A DNA stretch of 64,000 bases, taken from NCBI GenBank assembly GCA_050124835.1, contig JASFEM010000005.1, positions 2,264-66,263 of the forward strand, read 5' to 3'. The stretch comes from Syntrophobacterales bacterium (GTDB lineage: Bacteria > Desulfobacterota > Syntrophobacteria > BM002). The notes under the pieces are model-generated. The model was not told the origin of the DNA. It did not search any database and saw nothing but the letters and a program-made list of their open reading frames with translations. This document shows positions 18,066 through 64,000 of this stretch, piece after piece (within the stretch, counting starts at the first letter, position 1; each line of letters begins with the position of its first letter). A program made the position numbers and the translations under genes.

Positions 18066-18479
18066 ATGGCTTCAGCTGATGCAGGCCGCCAGGGGCCCAG
18101 ATTCAAAGTCAAGTGGCCTGTCGAGGTAAAGACAAATCAAGGCTCCATGGACGGGGTGACTCTGGATCTTGGCACAGATGGCGCCTTTGTCCGTTGTGCA
18201 AAGCCCCTCAAGTTAAACGAAGTTTTTGATATCGTCATAACCGCACCCGACCAATTGATCGAAGCGACGGCTGAAGTCGTCTGGTCGAATATCCACGGCC
18301 CCGATGACGACATCACGCCGCGTGGCATGGGTTTGCGTTTTCTAAAGATTTCTGGGGAACACCGTAGGGTTATAGCCAAAGAAGCCTTGCAACATCTGGA
18401 TGCAAAGAAAATAGATTCCAGGGAGTTGGAGGCACTTCAGACGTTAGTCCTGGATATGGACGAGATCTCGTCAGAATAA
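18066..18479 (+). CDS. Stand-alone PilZ-domain protein
   Basis: RQGPR (RxxxR), DLGTDG (degenerate D/NxSxxG), AEVVW, GMGLRF. Confidence 0.9.
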   Translation: MASADAGRQGPRFKVKWPVEVKTNQGSMDGVTLDLGTDGAFVRCAKPLKLNEVFDIVITAPDQLIEATAEVVWSNIHGPDDDITPRGMGLRFLKISGEHRRVIAKEALQHLDAKKIDSRELEALQTLVLDMDEISSE

Positions 18480-21380: not shown

Positions 21381-21414
21381 AGACACCCGAACCTTATGGC
21401 TCGGGTGTCCTTTT
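21381..21414. terminator. Intrinsic terminator between the small ORF and the tRNA
   Basis: GACACCCGA...TCGGGTGTC followed by CTTTT. Confidence 0.7.
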
Positions 21415-21418
21415 CTTC

Positions 21419-21495
<77 letters not shown>

Positions 21496-21779
21496 AGAGC
21501 GGATTTGCCGACGTTCTTTTGGTGGAAAGAGTCTTACACCAATACCTTCCTTTTTGCAAGCGGTCCTCAATACTCTAGCAACGGTTGAAACTAGGGCTCC
21601 CTTTTGTCTTTCCTAGAACCGGCTCTTTCTGGTAACATACGCGACAGCTAATGCAGGAGATTTGTCTTGGCCCACGTGTAATTTCAGCATCATCGGCGCA
21701 TGAGAATCTTAAGCTGAAAGTGCGGCTTCTCGCTTGCTCTGTATCGGAGGTCCTACCGATCAAGAAGGGGGGCGCCAAT

Positions 21780-22154
21780 ATGGCTCTCAAGATTGAAAAG
21801 CGTCATCATTCAAGGATTTCGGTGGATTGGCCCGTGGTTGTGGTAACCCCACAGCGCTACATAGGGGGCGAAACAAAGAACATCAGCCTCGGAGGCGCCT
21901 TCATTCGTTGCGTCAGTAATCCGGGAGCATTTGAACCTCTCCGTATCGTCTTCAAGGCGCCATCTCGCGAACAGTTCTTGCTGTTCACGGCTGTGGTTGT
22001 CTGGTCAAATCAGTATGAACAGATGGATGAGCTTTTCTCAACTGAAACCGGCATCAGGTTTACAGGTTTTATTGGTGATAGTCGCCAATACCTTTCCCAA
22101 GTGATCTCAGACCATGGAGTATTGGAGTACGACAAAGAATTCTCCGCAGATTAA
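21780..22154 (+). CDS. Stand-alone PilZ-domain protein
   Basis: RHHSR, NISLGG, VVW, GIRF; GGGGG SD before ATG 21780. Confidence 0.9.
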   Translation: MALKIEKRHHSRISVDWPVVVVTPQRYIGGETKNISLGGAFIRCVSNPGAFEPLRIVFKAPSREQFLLFTAVVVWSNQYEQMDELFSTETGIRFTGFIGDSRQYLSQVISDHGVLEYDKEFSAD

Positions 22155-22261: not shown

Positions 22262-22696
22262 GTGGTCGACCTTCGAGAAAAACGCAGTTACCCCAGGGCA
22301 AAAATCGAATGGCCGATTACCATTAAGACCGAGCAAGGCAGTGTGCAGGGGCTCACTCTTAATGTCAGTGCTGGTGGTGCCCAAATCCGATGTAAGAGCC
22401 CACCGCTGTTATATGAAGTATTTGAAATGACAATTAAAACTCCAGAGCTAGATCGCTCTTTGGTTGTTGACGCTCAAGTGGTCTGGTCAACCGCCGATTT
22501 ATTAGACAGTGAGCTCACCCTACCTATCATAGGTGTTAGTTTTACCCATATTTCTGACCGCGACCGCTGGCTTATCTCCACTGCTGTTTCAATGTTTCTC
22601 AAAGAGAAAAAACGTGTCCCCCCGAGAGTGGAAGCTGCCAAGAAAGCTCTGGAAAAAGCGCTGAAAGAATGTATGGAAGAGACACCTGAGGAATAG
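22262..22696 (+). CDS. Stand-alone PilZ-domain protein
   Basis: RSYPR, NVSAGG, QVVW, GVSF. Confidence 0.9.
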   Translation: MVDLREKRSYPRAKIEWPITIKTEQGSVQGLTLNVSAGGAQIRCKSPPLLYEVFEMTIKTPELDRSLVVDAQVVWSTADLLDSELTLPIIGVSFTHISDRDRWLISTAVSMFLKEKKRVPPRVEAAKKALEKALKECMEETPEE

Positions 22697-23118: not shown

Positions 23119-23475
23119 CTACGAATACCTAGTGTGCTCAGAGACCACCTCTACAAGGAATTGGCGGTCTTCTTCAGAAATATCAGTAAAGCGCACTCCC
23201 ATACCAATGGGAGCCGGCTCGGAATTTGGGATGAGGGGGATGTCGATCCATACCACCTCTGCCCCTATCCATGAAGACTCTCGATCTTGCACGAGGATAG
23301 CCAAGATAAAAAGATCATTCTTGGACAGCAGCGTCCCACAGCGGATATACGCACCGCCAGCACTGATGTTCTCAATTGTGCCATCCATCTCCCCCTCGGG
23401 GGTCATCATAGTGACCGGCCAGGTCACGTCGATTCGGGGGTGTTCTCGCTGTTTTTCAAATTGGCCCGAGCTCAT
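23119..23475 (-). CDS. Stand-alone PilZ-domain protein
   Basis: REHPR, NISAGG, AEVVW, GMGVRF; GGAGG before ATG 23475. Confidence 0.9.
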   Translation of the reverse strand: MSSGQFEKQREHPRIDVTWPVTMMTPEGEMDGTIENISAGGAYIRCGTLLSKNDLFILAILVQDRESSWIGAEVVWIDIPLIPNSEPAPIGMGVRFTDISEEDRQFLVEVVSEHTRYS

Positions 23476-23581
23476 ATGCTCCTCCAAGCTTGCTGGAGAC
23501 GATCTTGCTGAGGTCATCGGCAGAGTCTCCGGGTGCAAGCTGTCATGGGTAACGCCAAACACCTCCCCCCTTCCGCCTAAA

Positions 23582-24586: not shown

Positions 24587-24925
24587 CTATGAGGACATCT
24601 CGCTAATGAATTGGACATCTTCCTCGGAGATAAAAGTGAAGCGAACTCCCATACCAACGGGAACGGACTCAGAATCAGCAGAGAGGGTGATGTCGGCTCG
24701 GACGACTTCCGCCCCTATCCATAGAGGCTCTCGTTCCAGGCCAAGAATGCCTAAAATAAGAAGGTCATTTCTGAATAGCAACCTTCCACAGTTAATATAA
24801 GCACCCCCGGCACTGATGTTTTCTATCACGCCATCCAGTGCCCCCTCGGTGGTCATCAATACAACAGGCCATCTCACTTGGATTCTAGGGTGGGCTCGTT
24901 TTTCGGCCATATGAGCCAAATGCAT
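24587..24925 (-). CDS. Stand-alone PilZ-domain protein, paralog of 23119..23475
   Basis: RAHPR, NISAGG, GMGVRF; GGAGGTG SD. Confidence 0.9.
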   Translation of the reverse strand: MHLAHMAEKRAHPRIQVRWPVVLMTTEGALDGVIENISAGGAYINCGRLLFRNDLLILGILGLEREPLWIGAEVVRADITLSADSESVPVGMGVRFTFISEEDVQFISEMSS

Positions 24926-25026
24926 ACTCACCTCCCGGCGCAAGAGACAATCGCGTTAGAGCAAGAAAAAGAGTTTACTGGTGCCTCAACCGGATGGATC
25001 TGAGCATGCCCCCCACCCGCTCCATA

Positions 25027-25042
25027 TGAAAGGATCATGCCA
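25027..25042 (-). promoter_or_regulatory. Putative sigma54 promoter with variant -12 element
   Basis: TGGCATGATCCTTTCA. Confidence 0.55.
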
Positions 25043-25263
25043 AATCAAAGAATAATAAAAGTTTTCTATATATTTTAAATACTTAACTCTATAAATATCA
25101 AAGTATGAAGATGAAGAGTCAGGCGGATCAGAGGCCAAAATTGTCACATAGTGAAAAAAAACGGCATCTTGGAAAATTTTGATTTTGCAATGCGGAAGGC
25201 AGAACGTAGAAAGGAAAAAATGGTGTTACAACGAATGCTTTGATAACCCCACCGAGGCGCAGT

Positions 25264-58448: not shown

Positions 58449-58760
58449 ATGATTTTCATTGGCGGTATCGGCCCGAGGAAGAAACGACTTGACGACCAAC
58501 CGCGCATCTGTTCCAACTGCGGCCTGAGCCAAGCATACCTCACTCGAATTGATGATTACCTCTCCCTCTTTTTTATACCGCTACTTCGCATCCGACAAGG
58601 CAAGCCTATTATCCAGTGCGAAAGATGTGGTCATGTTACCGCCGAAAGCGGTGAAGTTTACACCCCCGGCACGGATCTAACCCTCCCCCGCTGCCTTCGA
58701 TGCGGTGCAACCCTCAAGGAAGACTTTAGCTACTGCCCTTATTGCGGCGAAGGCAGATAG
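58449..58760 (+). CDS. Zinc-ribbon domain protein
   Basis: MIFIGG, CSNC, LFFIP, CERC, CLRCG and CPYCG. Confidence 0.85.
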   Translation: MIFIGGIGPRKKRLDDQPRICSNCGLSQAYLTRIDDYLSLFFIPLLRIRQGKPIIQCERCGHVTAESGEVYTPGTDLTLPRCLRCGATLKEDFSYCPYCGEGR

Positions 58761-59108: not shown

Positions 59109-59477
59109 CTAACGGCGAGCTGAGCGGTACCTCCAGTAGACGCCACAATAGATTGCCACCGTGTAAAGCAACAGAATGACGCCTATCAAGTATTGGACCT
59201 CAATTGTCATATTTGGATAGATGATGGGAGCAATGTAGTGATCAATAAATCCTCCTGCGAAAGAGGGCTCCCCGGCACGCTGCCGCAACGTTTGCTCCAG
59301 GGGTGTCAACGGGCAATATGTTCCGGGCTTGAGCTCTATATAGAGAGCCCAAAACACTGCCGGCAGATGAACAAAAGCAATACGATGCCAGAAAAGTGCC
59401 AGAAGTCCGCCAGTAATCACCAGAAGGATGAAACCTAAATGCAGTAGCATCACCATATCGGCAAGAAAGCCGTACAT
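59109..59477 (-). CDS. DUF2784-family membrane protein
   Basis: LAD.V.LLHL.FI, HLPAVFW, CPLTPLE..LR, GFIDHYI.PIIYP. Confidence 0.85.
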   Translation of the reverse strand: MYGFLADMVMLLHLGFILLVITGGLLALFWHRIAFVHLPAVFWALYIELKPGTYCPLTPLEQTLRQRAGEPSFAGGFIDHYIAPIIYPNMTIEVQYLIGVILLLYTVAIYCGVYWRYRSARR

Positions 59478-59611
59478 GGAATGTCTCTTTATGACGTTGG
59501 TATGGAATCCATGTCCCTGGCCCAAACAGGCTCAGGAAAAGATGGAGTAGTGGAAAGAGGTGTTCTTGGGTGAAATAGCGGCTCAGAACCTTCAGACGAT
59601 CAGGACTCTTT

Positions 59612-60079
59612 TTAGCCCCGCACCCCTAATACGTTACTCAACGACATGGTCGTGTCCCGCAACCGCTCAGCAATCACCAGAGCCAAATTATACATGAACT
59701 TATAGGCAATGGTCATATTGCTTTGGGTTAGTTTGGCAAAATCGTCCCAACTCAGCTTAACTGCCTCAACTTCATCGATGGCCACCACCCAAGTGGATCG
59801 CCGGGCGCCATCTATGAAACCCAACTCCCCAAAAACCTGTCCGGGTAGACATTTAGTGATTGTCCCTGCGTCCTCTTTGATGGAAGGACCGCTTAGGGTG
59901 ATTTGCACCCTCCCACTTTTGATAAAGTAGAGGTCCCGCCCACGAGCATCTTCAGCTACGATGACGTCTCCGGTCTGGAATTGCATGGATTTAGCAATCT
60001 TGGCTATTTCCTCGACCTCCACACCATCAAAATCTTTGCAGACCACTGAACCAGCCAAAAACTTGGCCACTTCATCCAT
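59612..60079 (-). CDS. Stand-alone cyclic-nucleotide-binding domain protein
   Basis: LYFIKSGRV and FGELGFIDGARRS phosphate-binding cassette; no HTH domain. Confidence 0.88.
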   Translation of the reverse strand: MDEVAKFLAGSVVCKDFDGVEVEEIAKIAKSMQFQTGDVIVAEDARGRDLYFIKSGRVQITLSGPSIKEDAGTITKCLPGQVFGELGFIDGARRSTWVVAIDEVEAVKLSWDDFAKLTQSNMTIAYKFMYNLALVIAERLRDTTMSLSNVLGVRG

Positions 60080-60412: not shown

Positions 60413-61189
60413 ATGAAAAAATGGATTCTTATTGGCGGTACCGCTTTGGTAGTTATCATTATCGTCGTCTTGGTCGTAGGCATATCGAACTTGGGCCCCA
60501 TCATCAAAAAAGCGGTCAACACCTACGGTCCCACTATCACCAAAACAGAAGTCCGGTTGTCGGGTGTGGGGATTTCCATATTATCCGGCGAGGCCAAGCT
60601 CAAAGGTTTTTATCTGGGCAACCCCAAAGGATTCAAGTCGCCGGAGGCCATGACGGTGGCTTCAATATTTGTGGATCTGGATGAGAAGTCCATAACCAGC
60701 GACCCCGTTATTATCGACAAAATAGAGGTAGTTCGACCTGAGATCACCTATGAGAAGACGGGTAGAACCGATAACTTCAAGACCATTCTAAATAATGTTG
60801 AAAGCAGCGTCAGTAAGGGCGACTCTGCGAAGCAGCAGTCTGGCAAAAAGGCTGAGGGTAAGAAACTCATCATCAGAAATTTCATCATAAAGGACGCTAA
60901 GGTAGACTTGTCCGTTTCAGCTGTCGGCGGGCAAAGTCTAAGTGCATCGGCATCACTTCAGGACATCCATCTAAAGAACATAGGCGAGAAAAGAGGCGGT
61001 GCATCCCCTGAGCAGGTGTTCAAAGAGGTTTTCGCGATACTTTACAAGGAGATGACTTCTCCTGCCGTAACCGCTGCTCTCAACGAGCAATTAAAAGAAC
61101 TTGGTTCCAGTGTTGAGATAGAAACCCCGGTTGGTAAGACTGATTTGGGAAGCGCCACCGATAAGGTCAAAGGGATGTTCGGCAAGTAG
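60413..61189 (+). CDS. AsmA/DUF748-like membrane-anchored protein
   Basis: N-terminal TM helix, NPKGF, beta-strand-rich body. Confidence 0.7.
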   Translation: MKKWILIGGTALVVIIIVVLVVGISNLGPIIKKAVNTYGPTITKTEVRLSGVGISILSGEAKLKGFYLGNPKGFKSPEAMTVASIFVDLDEKSITSDPVIIDKIEVVRPEITYEKTGRTDNFKTILNNVESSVSKGDSAKQQSGKKAEGKKLIIRNFIIKDAKVDLSVSAVGGQSLSASASLQDIHLKNIGEKRGGASPEQVFKEVFAILYKEMTSPAVTAALNEQLKELGSSVEIETPVGKTDLGSATDKVKGMFGK

Positions 61190-61300
61190 AGATGAAATGG
61201 GGCGCAATGCAGATGTGTGTAGTTGCGGGAGAGGTTTGCCAGTGCCAAATGCAGATAGCTTAAGACGGTGGCTGGCAACCTGGAAGGTGGAAAAAACAAT

Positions 61301-61489
61301 TTATGCAACGGCCCCAAACGGCCAGTAGAACGAGTACAGCTCGAATATGGACAAGAATTTTGCGTTGCAGTGCTCACATATATAGTATTTGCTGCCGGGT
61401 AAAAACCGCATCCAAAAACTCCGTCTGATTCGCTGCCGGTCCATGCCCTTGCACTTGGGACAGGTTTTGCCGCTAATTAGTATCGCCAT
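61301..61489 (-). CDS. Small zinc-ribbon protein
   Basis: CPKC..RIRRSFWMR..YICEHC; GGAGGGG SD before ATG 61489. Confidence 0.75.
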   Translation of the reverse strand: MAILISGKTCPKCKGMDRQRIRRSFWMRFLPGSKYYICEHCNAKFLSIFELYSFYWPFGAVA

Positions 61490-61561
61490 TTTCGCCCCTC
61501 CAGACGGCGGAGAGAGCCAAATTCCCTCAAGAAACAATAAAGTACGACCGTAAGGCTCCCC

Positions 61562-61696
61562 TTACGGTCGCTTCTCCGGGATTGGTAGTGGTTTTTTGCA
61601 AACTGGGCATTTCTTTTCTGTTGGCCTTATCATTAAAGTCGCTTTGCACCCGGAGCATATGACCTTATCAAACTTTATGCTCTTGTTTTCGTTCAT
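61562..61696 (-). CDS. 44-aa zinc-ribbon microprotein (not in ORF track)
   Basis: MNENKSIKFDKVICSGCKATLMIRPTEKKCPVCKKPLPIPEKRP*; two CxxC pairs; weak SD. Confidence 0.55.
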   Translation of the reverse strand: MNENKSIKFDKVICSGCKATLMIRPTEKKCPVCKKPLPIPEKRP

Positions 61697-61806
61697 CTTT
61701 TGTGAGTTTGCCAAGAGTTGGTCTCGAAATGCCAAGTAAAATAATTGTTCTGAACCTAATCTAGAGCCGCATTTCAGTAGCGGTCCAGACTGGATGGTCT
61801 AACCTC

Positions 61807-62049
61807 TTACTGGTGAATGGAACGGACGGTTAAAGATTTATTGCGGCCACTTCCCTTTCTGCGGTCTTTACCGGAACGCCGATCTTCGCCACTTCGAAGA
61901 TCAATTATCCTCCACCCCGCTCTAACTCTTCGGTCCTCACCGTTTGCCCCATCAGGGACGTGCCTGAATCTACGGTCAATACTCAGCCTGCGCTCCTCGC
62001 CGGAACGTCTTTCTCTGCCGCTTCTACGTTCAACTTGAAAAACAGTCAT
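61807..62049 (-). CDS. 80-aa [DE]RR-repeat protein
   Basis: Seven [DE]RR units, mostly at 6-residue spacing; GGGAG SD before ATG 62049. Confidence 0.7.
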   Translation of the reverse strand: MTVFQVERRSGRERRSGEERRLSIDRRFRHVPDGANGEDRRVRAGWRIIDLRSGEDRRSGKDRRKGSGRNKSLTVRSIHQ

Positions 62050-62140
62050 TAAAAACTCCCACACCTCTCCTTGAAACCCCATCAGACTGACTGAGCAGGA
62101 TCGAAAATTTGTGTTGGCTAATATTGTTTAAAACCTAGCA

Positions 62141-62156
62141 GGCATAAATCATACCA
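62141..62156 (-). promoter_or_regulatory. Putative sigma54 promoter with adjacent IHF-like site
   Basis: TGGTATGATTTATGCC (GG-N10-GC); TATTAA-ATAC-TTA at 62185..62197. Confidence 0.6.
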
Positions 62157-62496
62157 ACTGAATTATTTACTTTTTTACTCAAATTATTAAATACTTAGCC
62201 TGATAAAGTCTAAGTACTCCCGGTGCCATATTGGGTAATCTAATACAAAGATTTGGCAGAAAAATACCACTTTTAGGCGAAAATGACACCCGCTAGATCT
62301 TACAACTACAATCCCATTAGAGTGGCAAAAAGAATTGTCTAAGAGGTTCAAGAAAGATGTTATTCAAATTCAAGGGGAATCGGGGGCAAAAATCAACCAC
62401 AACTATTTTGGCAAAATTCAGCTGTGTCATTTACCGCGTCTATTGCGGTGAGGGGATATGGAAAGCTTTAAGCTGATTCGGTGAGTAACCTCAATC

Positions 62497-62697
62497 TCAA
62501 ACATCCGCGCTAGGCAGTAAGGTCAAGACGTAATCCCACTCATTCCTGAGAAATTCTCTATGCTCTTTCACCCAGTCTTCGCCCTTTTCTTCCACGATCT
62601 CTTGTAGCCACATTCTCAGAAATAATAGATCTTCCTTGTCCCCTGGAAGTTTTTCCCAGCCCAGCAGTTCATAGGTTTTTTCCAGTGAAATTAGCAT
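62497..62697 (-). CDS. Small helical hypothetical protein
   Basis: AAGGA SD; 66-aa amphipathic ORF (KGEDWVKEHREFL..EWDY). Confidence 0.65.
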   Translation of the reverse strand: MLISLEKTYELLGWEKLPGDKEDLLFLRMWLQEIVEEKGEDWVKEHREFLRNEWDYVLTLLPSADV

Positions 62698-62934
62698 CAG
62701 TGGAATCCTTGTGCCATTTGCCCATTATCTATCAAATTTAACCGTTTGGTGCAATCCAATCACCGATGATGATTATTTGCCGTCTGCGGCAATTATTCCA
62801 AGCTATTAACTTCAAGCGTTCGTAGGAGAAATTGGACATATGATAACCTCGCACCAAGCCGTTAAGATCGTCTCCAACCTACCTAAACAAACCGTCGCTT
62901 TCTTTAGACGCAACGCAAGCGAAAACTATGCCAA

Positions 62935-63552
62935 TCAAAAGCGGAATTTTAGACCGACGGCGAGGGTGTTGGATCCTCCGTCCTTTGCCACTGTCTCGAA
63001 TCCGGTGGAGCGATGATGCAAACGAAAAATCCCGGCCCAGCGACTCTCTGGAGGACCAAGGGTGATCTCAGCAAACCAGAAGACCAACCACTGCTGGCTC
63101 GACGTGTGGGTGGTCTCTTCCACCTTGGGTACTTCAGTTGCATATGACGGTCCAACGCCCCAGGCAATAGTTGTCGCCACCGTATCGCTCCAGGGAAACT
63201 TGTGCCAACGGCCAGCCACCGCAGCGTTGAACTCCCAATGATCCTGATCGCCGAAATACTTACCCACGTTCCCTTCTACCTCCAGCGATAGCTTATCATC
63301 CAAGAAACGCTTGAACGTCCAGGCAAAGGCCCCAACCACAAGGTTCGAGTCCACAAAATCCACATTAGGTGAAATGGCGTGCGACGCGTCACCGTCGGTG
63401 ACGCGTCCACCGTATACTGTCACAGCGAAGTCCTCAGCATAGGCAGCTCCAAGCAGGCAGATAAATAGGTAAACAACCATGGTGGCACAGGCTACCTGCA
63501 CACGTTTATTTCTATTGGGTTTCGCTGAAGGTTTCGCTTTTCGTTTGCGCAT
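62935..63552 (-). CDS. Small outer-membrane beta-barrel protein (PagL-like HHRS motif)
   Basis: Signal peptide ending AYA, RLHHRS, C-terminal KFRF; true start may be 63480. Confidence 0.7.
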   Translation of the reverse strand: MRKRKAKPSAKPNRNKRVQVACATMVVYLFICLLGAAYAEDFAVTVYGGRVTDGDASHAISPNVDFVDSNLVVGAFAWTFKRFLDDKLSLEVEGNVGKYFGDQDHWEFNAAVAGRWHKFPWSDTVATTIAWGVGPSYATEVPKVEETTHTSSQQWLVFWFAEITLGPPESRWAGIFRLHHRSTGFETVAKDGGSNTLAVGLKFRF

Positions 63553-63812
63553 CAGGTATCCGTCAAGATCAGCTTTCCGTGTTCGATTCTTAGATAATTG
63601 CGCAGGACAAAGCCGGAGGGCCCTTTATAGCCACTTAAGCTTTAGAAATCAATAGTAAGTAGCCTTTAAGACACTTTTTCAGCCGTGCTTTTTTCGAAGG
63701 GAATTATCTTGAAAACAGGCAAGCCCCACTGGCCATCCGCAAAAGGCCGGGAGGCCTGAGAGAAAAGCTAAATAAAGCAAAAGAGCCACCTTGACGGTGG
63801 CATATCTGGCGA

Positions 63813-63899
63813 TGGTGCCGAAGGGGAGATTCGAACTCCCACACCCTAACGGGCACTAGACCCTGAACCTAGCGCGTCTACCAGTTCCGCCACTTCGGC
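63813..63899 (-). tRNA. tRNA-Leu (anticodon CAG)
   Basis: GCCGAAGTGGCGGAACTGGTAGACGCGCTAGG-TTCAGGG-TCTAG, long variable arm, GTTCGAATC...CACCA; 87 nt. Confidence 0.97.
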
Positions 63900-64000
63900 A
63901 CGACAAAATGGTATTGCCAGTTGAAAAAAGTTAATGTATTCTTACACACTTTATTTGTCAAGTTGTAAAATCTTAACATTGAGCTCAAAGACAGCCAGTG

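Follow-up and report, generated by a model that had tools for sequence, protein, structure and literature searches.

What can a very short protein do that is built almost entirely from one repeated arginine motif? The question is raised by a gene close to the end of a 64,000-nucleotide stretch of the genome of a Syntrophobacterales bacterium, an uncultured organism of sulfate-reducer type (contig JASFEM010000005.1); this stretch is called the window below. The gene encodes a microprotein of 80 amino acids (aa) with [DE]RR repeats, and the preliminary description of the window had presented it as a candidate sponge for the second messenger cyclic diguanosine monophosphate (c-di-GMP) under sigma54 control. 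The c-di-GMP receptors known so far, among them PilZ, I-sites and MshEN, are folded domains. To our knowledge just one linear peptide has been described as a binder, the Cle tail of alphaproteobacterial CheY-like proteins, and this tail has inspired engineered sequestering peptides.

By sequence comparison the microprotein groups as a new, divergent member of a widespread, unnamed family with [DE]RRSGx[DE]RR repeats. For the typical members of this broad family, the best explanation is that each holds, as a stand-alone unit, a copy of the arginine-rich c-di-GMP-binding peptide of CleD type, because of their likeness to that peptide, the occurrence of the repeat as tails of signalling proteins, and the near-canonical cores of two paralogues in the same genome. 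For the window's own protein, c-di-GMP binding is plausible. The reading that we favour, at a probability of about 0.37, takes it as a small nucleotide-messenger-binding peptide of arginine-rich region (ARR) type, which would be induced from a sigma54-type promoter and serve as a c-di-GMP receptor or buffer.

The microprotein gene and its repeat family

In the list of open reading frames (ORFs), the minus-strand frame at 61807-62082 counts 91 aa from its first ATG, and an internal second ATG at 62049 gives the 80-aa protein MTVFQVERRSGRERRSGEERRLSIDRRFRHVPDGANGEDRRVRAGWRIIDLRSGEDRRSGKDRRKGSGRNKSLTVRSIHQ. The orthologous proteins in four other loci begin at the Met equivalent to the 62049 start. 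The Shine-Dalgarno sequence noted in the preliminary description (GGAGAGG/GGGAG) is present, and a purine-rich GGAG-type block is kept ahead of the start in all five orthologous loci, the window included. The repeat string is also as first written: seven [DE]RR motifs were counted, compared with an average of 0.79 and a highest count of 4 when the sequence was shuffled 10,000 times at unchanged composition, so that the repeat is real and not a by-product of the arginine content. The protein holds four overlapping RR-x-G-x-[DE]RR units; arginine makes up 21 of its 80 residues (26%), the net charge is +12 and the pI is 11.8. The gene is real, conserved and under selection.

No folded domain had been evident at first reading, and this view was upheld. 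The protein matched no family of Pfam (E ≤ 0.01) or NCBIfam, and a search by sequence against the PDB (177,635 distinct sequences) gave no match at E ≤ 10. AlphaFold2 with the family alignment reached a mean predicted local distance difference test (pLDDT) score of 59 and a predicted template modelling (pTM) score of 0.21, with only residues ~41-60 at pLDDT 70-90; the ESM Atlas model had a pLDDT of 0.35, and its nearest clusters were unnamed hypothetical proteins. The microprotein is thus predicted to be disordered, with no predicted fold.

Through a word-indexed search, 15 relatives of the microprotein were found at E ≤ 0.01 among 147 candidates, with 47-94% identity and lengths of 68-139 aa. 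An exhaustive profile search over 1.84 billion representatives returned 31 proteins at E ≤ 0.001, of which 15 passed E ≤ 1e-10; no protein reached E ≤ 1e-30. One of these 15 (P0022) is an unrelated 968-aa repeat protein; the window's own family is therefore small. Its closest genomic matches come from metagenome-assembled genomes (MAGs) of Deltaproteobacteria, Desulfobacteraceae, Desulfobacterota and Syntrophobacterales. At E ≤ 1e-20, clear orthologues were present in four of 17 other genomes of the same genus (G009, G012, G015 and G017), whereas four genomes from the family's other genera and 19 more from the class yielded none; many of the genomes surveyed are incomplete, and non-detection means not found, not absence.

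The alignment of the own family (A1) is laid out as an N-terminal ERRSGKDRRSGxERR, a conserved [DN]xRF, a middle of variable length, and a near-invariant WRIIDLRSG[EK]DRRSGxDRR. Invariant are R14, R15, E19, R20, R21, R27, F28, R47, D50, L51, R52, G54, R57, R58, G60, R63 and R64. The core xR[IT][IV]D[LFR]R[SNC]G is present in 23 of the 24 sequences, with W in 21, and 22 of the 23 relatives, as proteins or tails shorter than ~110 aa, contain at least two RR-x-G-x-[DE]RR units. The search for longer fused forms of the own family gave P0016 as its sole match, and no Pfam domain was found in it. At least seven relatives (P0005, P0010, P0012, P0016, P0021, P0026 and P0030) form a subgroup whose N-terminus is extended by a conserved stretch of ~60 aa containing four Cys, RINSCQxF..xC.HQ...MEKVYLFPQI....ICLxC. 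In P0016, the sole member scanned, the extension had no Pfam match.

The repeat unit extends far beyond this group. A scan with one genome per species gave 35 loci, in which the unit RRSGKDRR is found in many small proteins of WOR-3, Nitrospirota, Gemmatimonadota, Gaiellaceae and other Actinomycetota, Sumerlaeota, Anaerolineales, Clostridia and Kangiellaceae MAGs. The wide set consists of [DE]RRSGKDRR microproteins of 40-80 aa and of protein tails, from about ten phyla. When the 47-aa WOR-3 protein L031 was used as query, 52 small proteins were retrieved at E ≤ 0.01, all of them unnamed or "hypothetical", including P0017 of the own family. Each of the 50 new matches holds two or more RR-x-G-x-[DE]RR units. 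An alignment of 24 of these proteins (A2) has the consensus RRxxKDRRSGxDRRKFxDPxYKGPERRSGKDRRSGKDRRK, and none of its members matched Pfam or NCBIfam at E ≤ 1. Compared with hhalign, A1 and A2 gave a probability of 98.3% and E 2.1e-14 over 47 columns, values to be read in the knowledge that hhalign and HMMER scores are inflated between repeat-rich, compositionally biased sequences.

The window's family is like the A2 microproteins of WOR-3, Nitrospirota, Gemmatimonadota, Actinomycetota and others in the RRSGxDRR unit, the size of 40-80 aa and the stand-alone genes. It differs from them in having an 11-residue insertion that ends in the invariant WRIIDL, in lacking the FxDPxYKGPERR core, in its variable middle and in its confinement to one genus-level group. 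As terminal tails on larger proteins with Pfam domains, RRSGKDRR was found at the N-terminus of a Cache-HAMP-adenylate/guanylate cyclase (L039), the N-terminus of an FAD oxidoreductase (L043) and the C-terminus of a GGDEF protein (L044). By eye only, it was also seen at the C-terminus of a channel-like membrane protein (L038) and in a linker after a receiver-like region (L024).

Six repeat proteins are encoded in the genome of the window: the microprotein itself, C39 (108 aa), C8 (96 aa), C41 (217 aa), C4 and C228. The latter two (~140 aa) have N-terminal [DE]RRSG repeats followed by a HisKA (DHp) domain, without a kinase/ATPase domain. Apart from these HisKA domains, the paralogues gave no match in Pfam or NCBIfam. 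The cores of C39, DRRLFNDYDYRGSERRSGKD, and of C41, DRRVSNNPGYDGAERRSGRD, are near-canonical in the sense of the Cle peptide. The C39 gene stands directly after an ORF for a Cys-rich zinc ribbon of 112 aa, and a PilZ gene was noted 1.2 kb downstream of the C41 gene.

Likeness to the Cle peptide

The Cle peptides are described in two papers. A literature search on [DE]RRSG repeats and on small disordered c-di-GMP-sequestering proteins gave only these two papers and unrelated work. The c-di-GMP-binding ARR is defined as a tandem [Y/F]xGP[D/E][R/K]R in PMC5677366, and the Cle motif as DRR-x11-(R/K)RxxD in PMC7382256; the Gx[DE]RR that had been named as the Cle motif in the preliminary description corresponds to neither definition. 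The minimal binder has 19 residues, a 2:1 stoichiometry and an unstructured ligand-free state (PMC7382256). A Cle-type peptide takes up its two c-di-GMP molecules with sub-micromolar affinity and becomes folded in doing so. In the alanine scan of the same paper Y163, G165, R168 and R169 matter most, alanine at G165 or R168 weakening binding 43-fold or 27-fold (its Table 1), and the R169...D172 turn copies the RxxD geometry of PleD. Among 302 ARR matches, 294 were from Alphaproteobacteria, and 5% of the 302 had no known domain (PMC5677366); free-standing ARR peptides have therefore been glimpsed earlier, in Alphaproteobacteria.

The comparison of the repeat family with CleD was made through the PDB search and through motif patterns. 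With the single sequence L031, the sole match in the PDB (177,635 distinct sequences) was the CleD c-di-GMP-sequestering peptide 6SFT_A, at E 0.24. The A2 profile again had 6SFT_A as its sole match, at E 0.019 over GPDRRRFNSADYKGPRKR with 11/18 identities and exactly on the binding core, although A2 members had been picked for showing this core and the profile test is biased accordingly; the single-sequence match of L031 predates that selection. Of the 50 new matches of the broad family, 21 carry [YF]xGP[DE][RK]R and 26 carry DRR-x11-[RK]RxxxD, where the acidic residue stands one position later than in Cle; the strict DRR-x11-[RK]RxxD was found in one.

In the microprotein, the nearest mapping onto DRR-x11-(R/K)RxxD is D39RR-x9-L51R52-xx-E55. 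The register is uncertain, because the hhalign and BLASTP alignments disagree. In hhalign, RF..VP of the own family is placed on Y.GP, and the stretch ending in WRIIDL appears as an 11-residue insertion. In BLASTP against the paralogue C39, DRRV--RAGWRIIDLRSGED is aligned with DRRLFNDYDYRGSERRSGKD, which pairs W46 with the stacking tyrosine, R52 with the essential R169 and E55 with D172; in this register I48/I49 stand in place of G165/P166 and L51 in place of R168, and the loop is shortened by two residues. The fourth position of the RxxE-like unit (R52-S-G-E55) is E, D or A in 16 of 24 members and K in the other seven with the core.

The likeness to the Cle peptide is that of a short, arginine-rich peptide, unstructured alone, with DRR and R-x2-3-[DE] half-motifs and a conserved aromatic residue, and the predicted disorder of the microprotein is compatible with the ligand-free state of the Cle peptide. 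The Cle peptide and the broad family further have in common that both are graftable tails on signalling proteins. Unlike Cle, the microprotein does not sit C-terminal to a CheY-like receiver domain: its 80-aa ORF stands alone, and Pfam found no domain in it. Its [DE]RR units number seven and not two, and it belongs to Desulfobacterota, not Alphaproteobacteria. Its R52-S-G-E55 (RxxE) also resembles the RxxD of the GGDEF I-site, with the difference that no GGDEF fold surrounds it.

Upstream region, transcripts and PilZ genes

The candidate sigma54-type promoter TTGGTATGATTTATGCC lies 92 nt ahead of the microprotein ATG. It has two mismatches to TGGYAYNNNNNTTGCW and is hence outside the list of sites with at most one mismatch. 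The survey of promoter conservation among homologues that had been proposed in the preliminary description covered five orthologous loci: TTGGTATGATTTATGCC is identical in three (window, L008 and L009) amid strongly diverged flanks, and L010 and L011 carry ATGCATACATTGTGCT, with TG instead of GG. The sigma54 motif reported at first, with GG-N10-GC, is borne out to this extent. Eight TTGG[CT]ATGA-N4-T[GT]C sites exist in the whole genome, among them those of the microprotein gene, of two PilZ genes in the window and of groES. In spacing and conservation TTGGTATGATTTATGCC has the features of a putative sigma54 promoter, and rpoN and sigma54 activators are present in the genome; among the scanned ORFs of the window there was no sigma54-activator gene. 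Another sequence, TGGCACCGGGAGTACTT (62229-62213), was considered as a sigma54 site and rejected, since it lacks the GC at -12 and its conservation does not extend to L009.

Further upstream, two one-mismatch matches to the integration host factor (IHF) consensus WATCAANNNNTTR are found at 62177-62197. The window has 49 such matches and 52.9 were expected, so that the IHF-like site of the preliminary description is at chance level. The 11-mer TAAGTATTTAA has three copies in the 3.97-Mb genome, of which two stand 41 and 43 nt upstream of -24 elements, one at the microprotein gene and one at the PilZ gene 24587-24943; it may function as a bending or IHF site or belong to an activator site. Upstream of both PilZ genes on the minus strand stands TTGGCATGA(A/T)CCTTTCA, with TC and not GC at -12. 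The upstream regions of the three plus-strand PilZ genes have no sigma54-like site and only short AT-rich words in common with that of the microprotein. The resemblance to PilZ promoters claimed earlier therefore holds for one paralogue (24587-24943), which shares the TAAGTATTTAA layout, and fails for the three plus-strand genes; by sequence, this promoter layout, common with one of the five PilZ genes of the window, is the only link of the microprotein to PilZ.

Inverted repeats upstream of the microprotein are short and AT-rich. The 81-nt leader folds no better than shuffled sequences (z -0.65), and Rfam over 60500-64000 gave only a tRNA gene (63816-63899, minus strand) and no riboswitch. 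Among the paralogues, C228 is preceded by a good sigma54-type site, TGGCACACATTCTGCT, at a distance of 48 nt from its start, and C4 has TTGGCATGATCTTTTAA, without GC; upstream of C8, C39 and C41 no sigma54-type site was found.

Matches to the stretch came from many wetland and marine-sediment metagenome runs and from six RNA runs. Four metatranscriptome runs were compared as contigs, and in each the reading is confined to the contig-covered parts of the stretch. The microprotein ORF is covered at ≥99% identity by contigs of three of four metatranscriptome libraries (X15, X20 and X21), which gives weak backing to its transcription, as RNA-library contigs give no strand, start or level and may include DNA carry-over. 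An X15 contig (61695-61950) bridges the end of the microprotein ORF and the start of the zinc-ribbon gene 61562-61735, and no terminator-like site was found between the two genes, which are probably co-transcribed.

The genome (3.97 Mb, 96% complete) contains 70 PilZ, 11 GGDEF (10 over the curated cut-off) and 32 Sigma54_activat matches. It has a very receptor-heavy c-di-GMP system with a large PilZ expansion. Most of the 70 PilZ matches are stand-alone ORFs of 110-180 aa, and five of them lie within 7 kb in the window. These five are 37-44 kb from the microprotein gene and not adjacent to it; their presence in the same 64-kb window carries little weight, because the genome has one PilZ gene per 57 kb on average. 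In PilZ, an arginine pair after an acidic or amide residue contacts c-di-GMP. The microprotein is similar to the PilZ switch loop in having arginine pairs preceded by an acidic or amide residue, and it is encoded in a PilZ-rich genome. It differs in its spacing, RRSGxDRR giving RR-x4-RR and not RR-x3-R, and in having no D/NxSxxG second motif, and PF07238 was not among its Pfam matches (0 families at E ≤ 0.01). The switch-loop analogy of the preliminary description is not sustained, as the RxxxR spacing is not matched by RRSGxDRR.

Competing readings and surrounding genes

In the favoured reading, a sigma54-type promoter would drive the microprotein gene together with the small zinc-ribbon gene. 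The induced microprotein would bind c-di-GMP, probably as intercalated dimers, and fold upon binding. The conserved aromatic W46 and the Arg/Asp half-motifs (DRR, RxxE/RxxxD) would supply the contacts, and the protein would serve as a small receptor or buffer the free messenger. Ligand binding, its stoichiometry, a sponge effect, a joint buffer with the PilZ array, the sigma54 dependence and a co-regulation with PilZ are what we infer from these comparisons, and a multivalent sponge of pure sequestration would be a speculative sub-case of the ARR-type c-di-GMP reading. The widest form of the proposal would see [DE]RRSGx[DE]RR disordered peptides as widespread enzyme-free c-di-GMP receptors or buffers in about ten phyla, both as microproteins and as kinase, cyclase and channel tails, with a sigma54-switched, multivalent, divergent member here whose titration of the messenger would run in parallel with one or more PilZ paralogues; this we regard as unlikely.

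If natural stand-alone peptides of this kind do exist in many phyla, they would offer a cheap, transcriptionally switchable way of buffering or reading the messenger, and would give a function to many "hypothetical" microproteins and disordered tails. The microprotein of the window would be the divergent test case, in which WRIIDLRSGxDRRSGxDRR stays fixed while the canonical YKGPERR core is lost; it could show whether the binding mode tolerates the loss of the core or whether the scaffold was turned to another use.

A number of results weigh against the c-di-GMP reading of the window's protein or against its sigma54-type induction. Neither the tandem [Y/F]xGP[D/E][R/K]R (PMC5677366) nor DRR-x11-(R/K)RxxD (PMC7382256) was found by regular expression in any of the 23 relatives or in the window's protein. 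The own-family profile, the protein itself and the paralogue C39 all had no PDB match at E ≤ 10. At the positions equivalent to Cle G165 and R168 (PMC7382256) stand I48 and L51. The upstream [DE]R[KR] arm is at the right distance from W46 in 11 of 24 members and is lost in the closest relative, P0001. Near 27 loci of the broad family there was no enrichment of c-di-GMP genes and no consistent partner: the survey, in which 109 of 139 ORFs were scanned, met one GGDEF, one HD-GYP-like, one HDOD and three receiver proteins, and otherwise housekeeping genes. The 30 other ORFs were left out as overlapping a match or apparently spurious, and among them are four long ORFs in high-GC loci that are perhaps real genes (L027:3915-7184, L036:627-3902, L048:719-3976 and L051:28-1386). 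AT-rich sigma70-like sites also exist upstream of the microprotein gene, and contigs of X15 and X22 cover 62121-62556, upstream of the proposed promoter, which is a mild caution against the sigma54 site as the only start. This cover could come from an upstream start, from another transcript on either strand, or from DNA carry-over.

The link to Cle proposed in the preliminary description thus stands in part, and for the window's protein it is indirect: A1 and A2 are related in hhalign (98.3%) and A2 has 6SFT_A as its sole PDB match, and the strict motifs are found in 0/23 relatives. As the strict motifs and a PDB match have no support in the own family, the microprotein is not a member of the Cle ARR group as defined. 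On sequence grounds it is rather a divergent relative of an ARR-like family.

A basic disordered protein could also bind nucleic acids, non-specifically or directed to RNA, as an RNA chaperone, a ribosome- or nucleoid-associated protein or a condensate former, with no dedicated messenger. The pI, net charge, arginine content and missing fold reported above fit this, and its mixed-charge RD/RE/RS repeats are reminiscent of the RS/RD domains of eukaryotes and of the basic tails on DEAD-box helicases in bacteria. A gene with an RRM domain lies ~370 nt downstream at the broad-family locus L037, and broad-family genes stand alone among housekeeping neighbours. However, the conserved non-basic residues W46, I48, I49, D50, L51 and G54 and the acidic residue before each RR point to a specific site that folds on binding; in the PDB, the match of the broad-family core is a c-di-GMP peptide, and no protein that binds RNA was among its matches; and among the loci seen, the module is joined to signalling domains and not to RNA enzymes. 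We consider nucleic-acid binding as the main role somewhat unlikely.

A protein-binding regulatory peptide, acting as adaptor or inhibitor independently of nucleotides, would have its partner in the co-encoded zinc ribbons or in a signalling protein such as the HisKA-only repeat proteins. The order microprotein, zinc ribbon, zinc ribbon is common to the window, L020 and L021, C39 has its gene directly after a Cys-rich zinc-ribbon ORF, and at least seven relatives bear the Cys-containing N-terminal extension. Against this, the zinc-ribbon neighbours are missing at the more distant L022 and L028, and the fused extension has no significant similarity to either zinc ribbon of the window; such a role appears quite unlikely. 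It is extremely improbable that there is no functional protein gene and that the frame is open only through composition or through the antisense ORF 61817-62038 on the plus strand (73 aa), whose frame is also open in L020 and L021 and which codon-position and substitution-phase statistics cannot separate from the minus-strand frame because the third codon positions coincide, since the minus-strand start and Shine-Dalgarno sequence are conserved in five loci, its amino-acid core is conserved to 47% identity and the repeat is in-frame with HisKA, cyclase and GGDEF domains elsewhere, whereas the antisense start is not conserved among orthologous loci. The remaining probability belongs to functions outside the ARR-type, nucleic-acid, protein-binding and non-gene readings.

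The features discussed are collected in Table 1.

Table 1. Positions of the microprotein gene, its upstream elements and related or neighbouring features (window coordinates unless a contig or locus is named)
Feature	Position	Strand	Basis
Coding sequence of the 80-aa [DE]RR-repeat microprotein, stop codon included	61807..62049	-	ORF list, homologues, alignment A1, Met shared by orthologues
Shine-Dalgarno region GGAGAGG ... GGGAG, 6 nt ahead of ATG	62056..62070	-	sequence reading
Candidate sigma54-type promoter TTGGTATGATTTATGCC, -24 GG / -12 GC	62141..62157	-	conserved block, GG-N10-GC
AT-rich upstream element TAAGTATTTAA, 41 nt before the -24 element	62187..62197	-	rare 11-mer
Small zinc-ribbon gene, 57 aa from TTG, CxxC-x17-CxxC	61562..61735	-	weak zinc-ribbon Pfam matches
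Terminator-like hairpin at the zinc-ribbon gene end, 12 pairs and T-rich tail	61544..61571	-	1 site vs 2.0 in shuffles, weak alone
Second zinc-ribbon gene, 62 aa from MAILISGK..., CPKC...CEHC, hydrophobic tail	61301..61489	-	conserved neighbour
PilZ gene	18066-18479	+	
PilZ gene	21651-22154	+	
PilZ gene	22262-22696	+	
PilZ gene	23119-23562	-	
PilZ gene	24587-24943	-	
Promoter region of PilZ gene 24587-24943: TAAGTATTTAA, then TTGGCATGATCCTTTCA 43 nt downstream	25027..25085	-	shared layout
HisKA-only repeat protein C4	G000:C4:12947-13486	+	Pfam
HisKA-only repeat protein C228	G000:C228:3577-4062	-	Pfam
Paralogue C39 with near-canonical Cle-like core	G000:C39:24128-24490 = L002:1369-1695	-	
Paralogue C41 with near-canonical Cle-like core	G000:C41:8064-8750	+	

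Several other features were noted in and around the locus. Upstream of the microprotein, a minus-strand ORF of 66 aa at 62497-62697 (MLISLEKTYELLGWEKL...) has no family match, and 65 of its 66 residues are identical in the close relative L020; sigma54-like sequences lie upstream of it, TGGCACAAGGATTCCA at 62716-62701 and TGGCATAGTTTTCGCT at 62933-62918. The neighbours conserved in L020 also include a cyclic nucleotide monophosphate (cNMP)-binding protein (59612-60079) and a DUF2784 protein (59109-59525). A 103-aa zinc-ribbon protein (Zn_ribbon_15 / double zinc ribbon) is encoded on the plus strand at 58449-58760, 3 kb from the locus. A tRNA-like sequence was seen, by eye only, at 21400-21500 of the window, upstream of the PilZ gene 21651-22154. 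Elsewhere in the genome, on contig C22 near 21539 (minus strand), the sigma54-type sequence TTGGCATGACTAATGCT stands 39 nt before a groES-like gene (MKIRPLHDRILIKRLEEE...), which hints at a possible sigma54-type promoter for the chaperonin genes of this organism.

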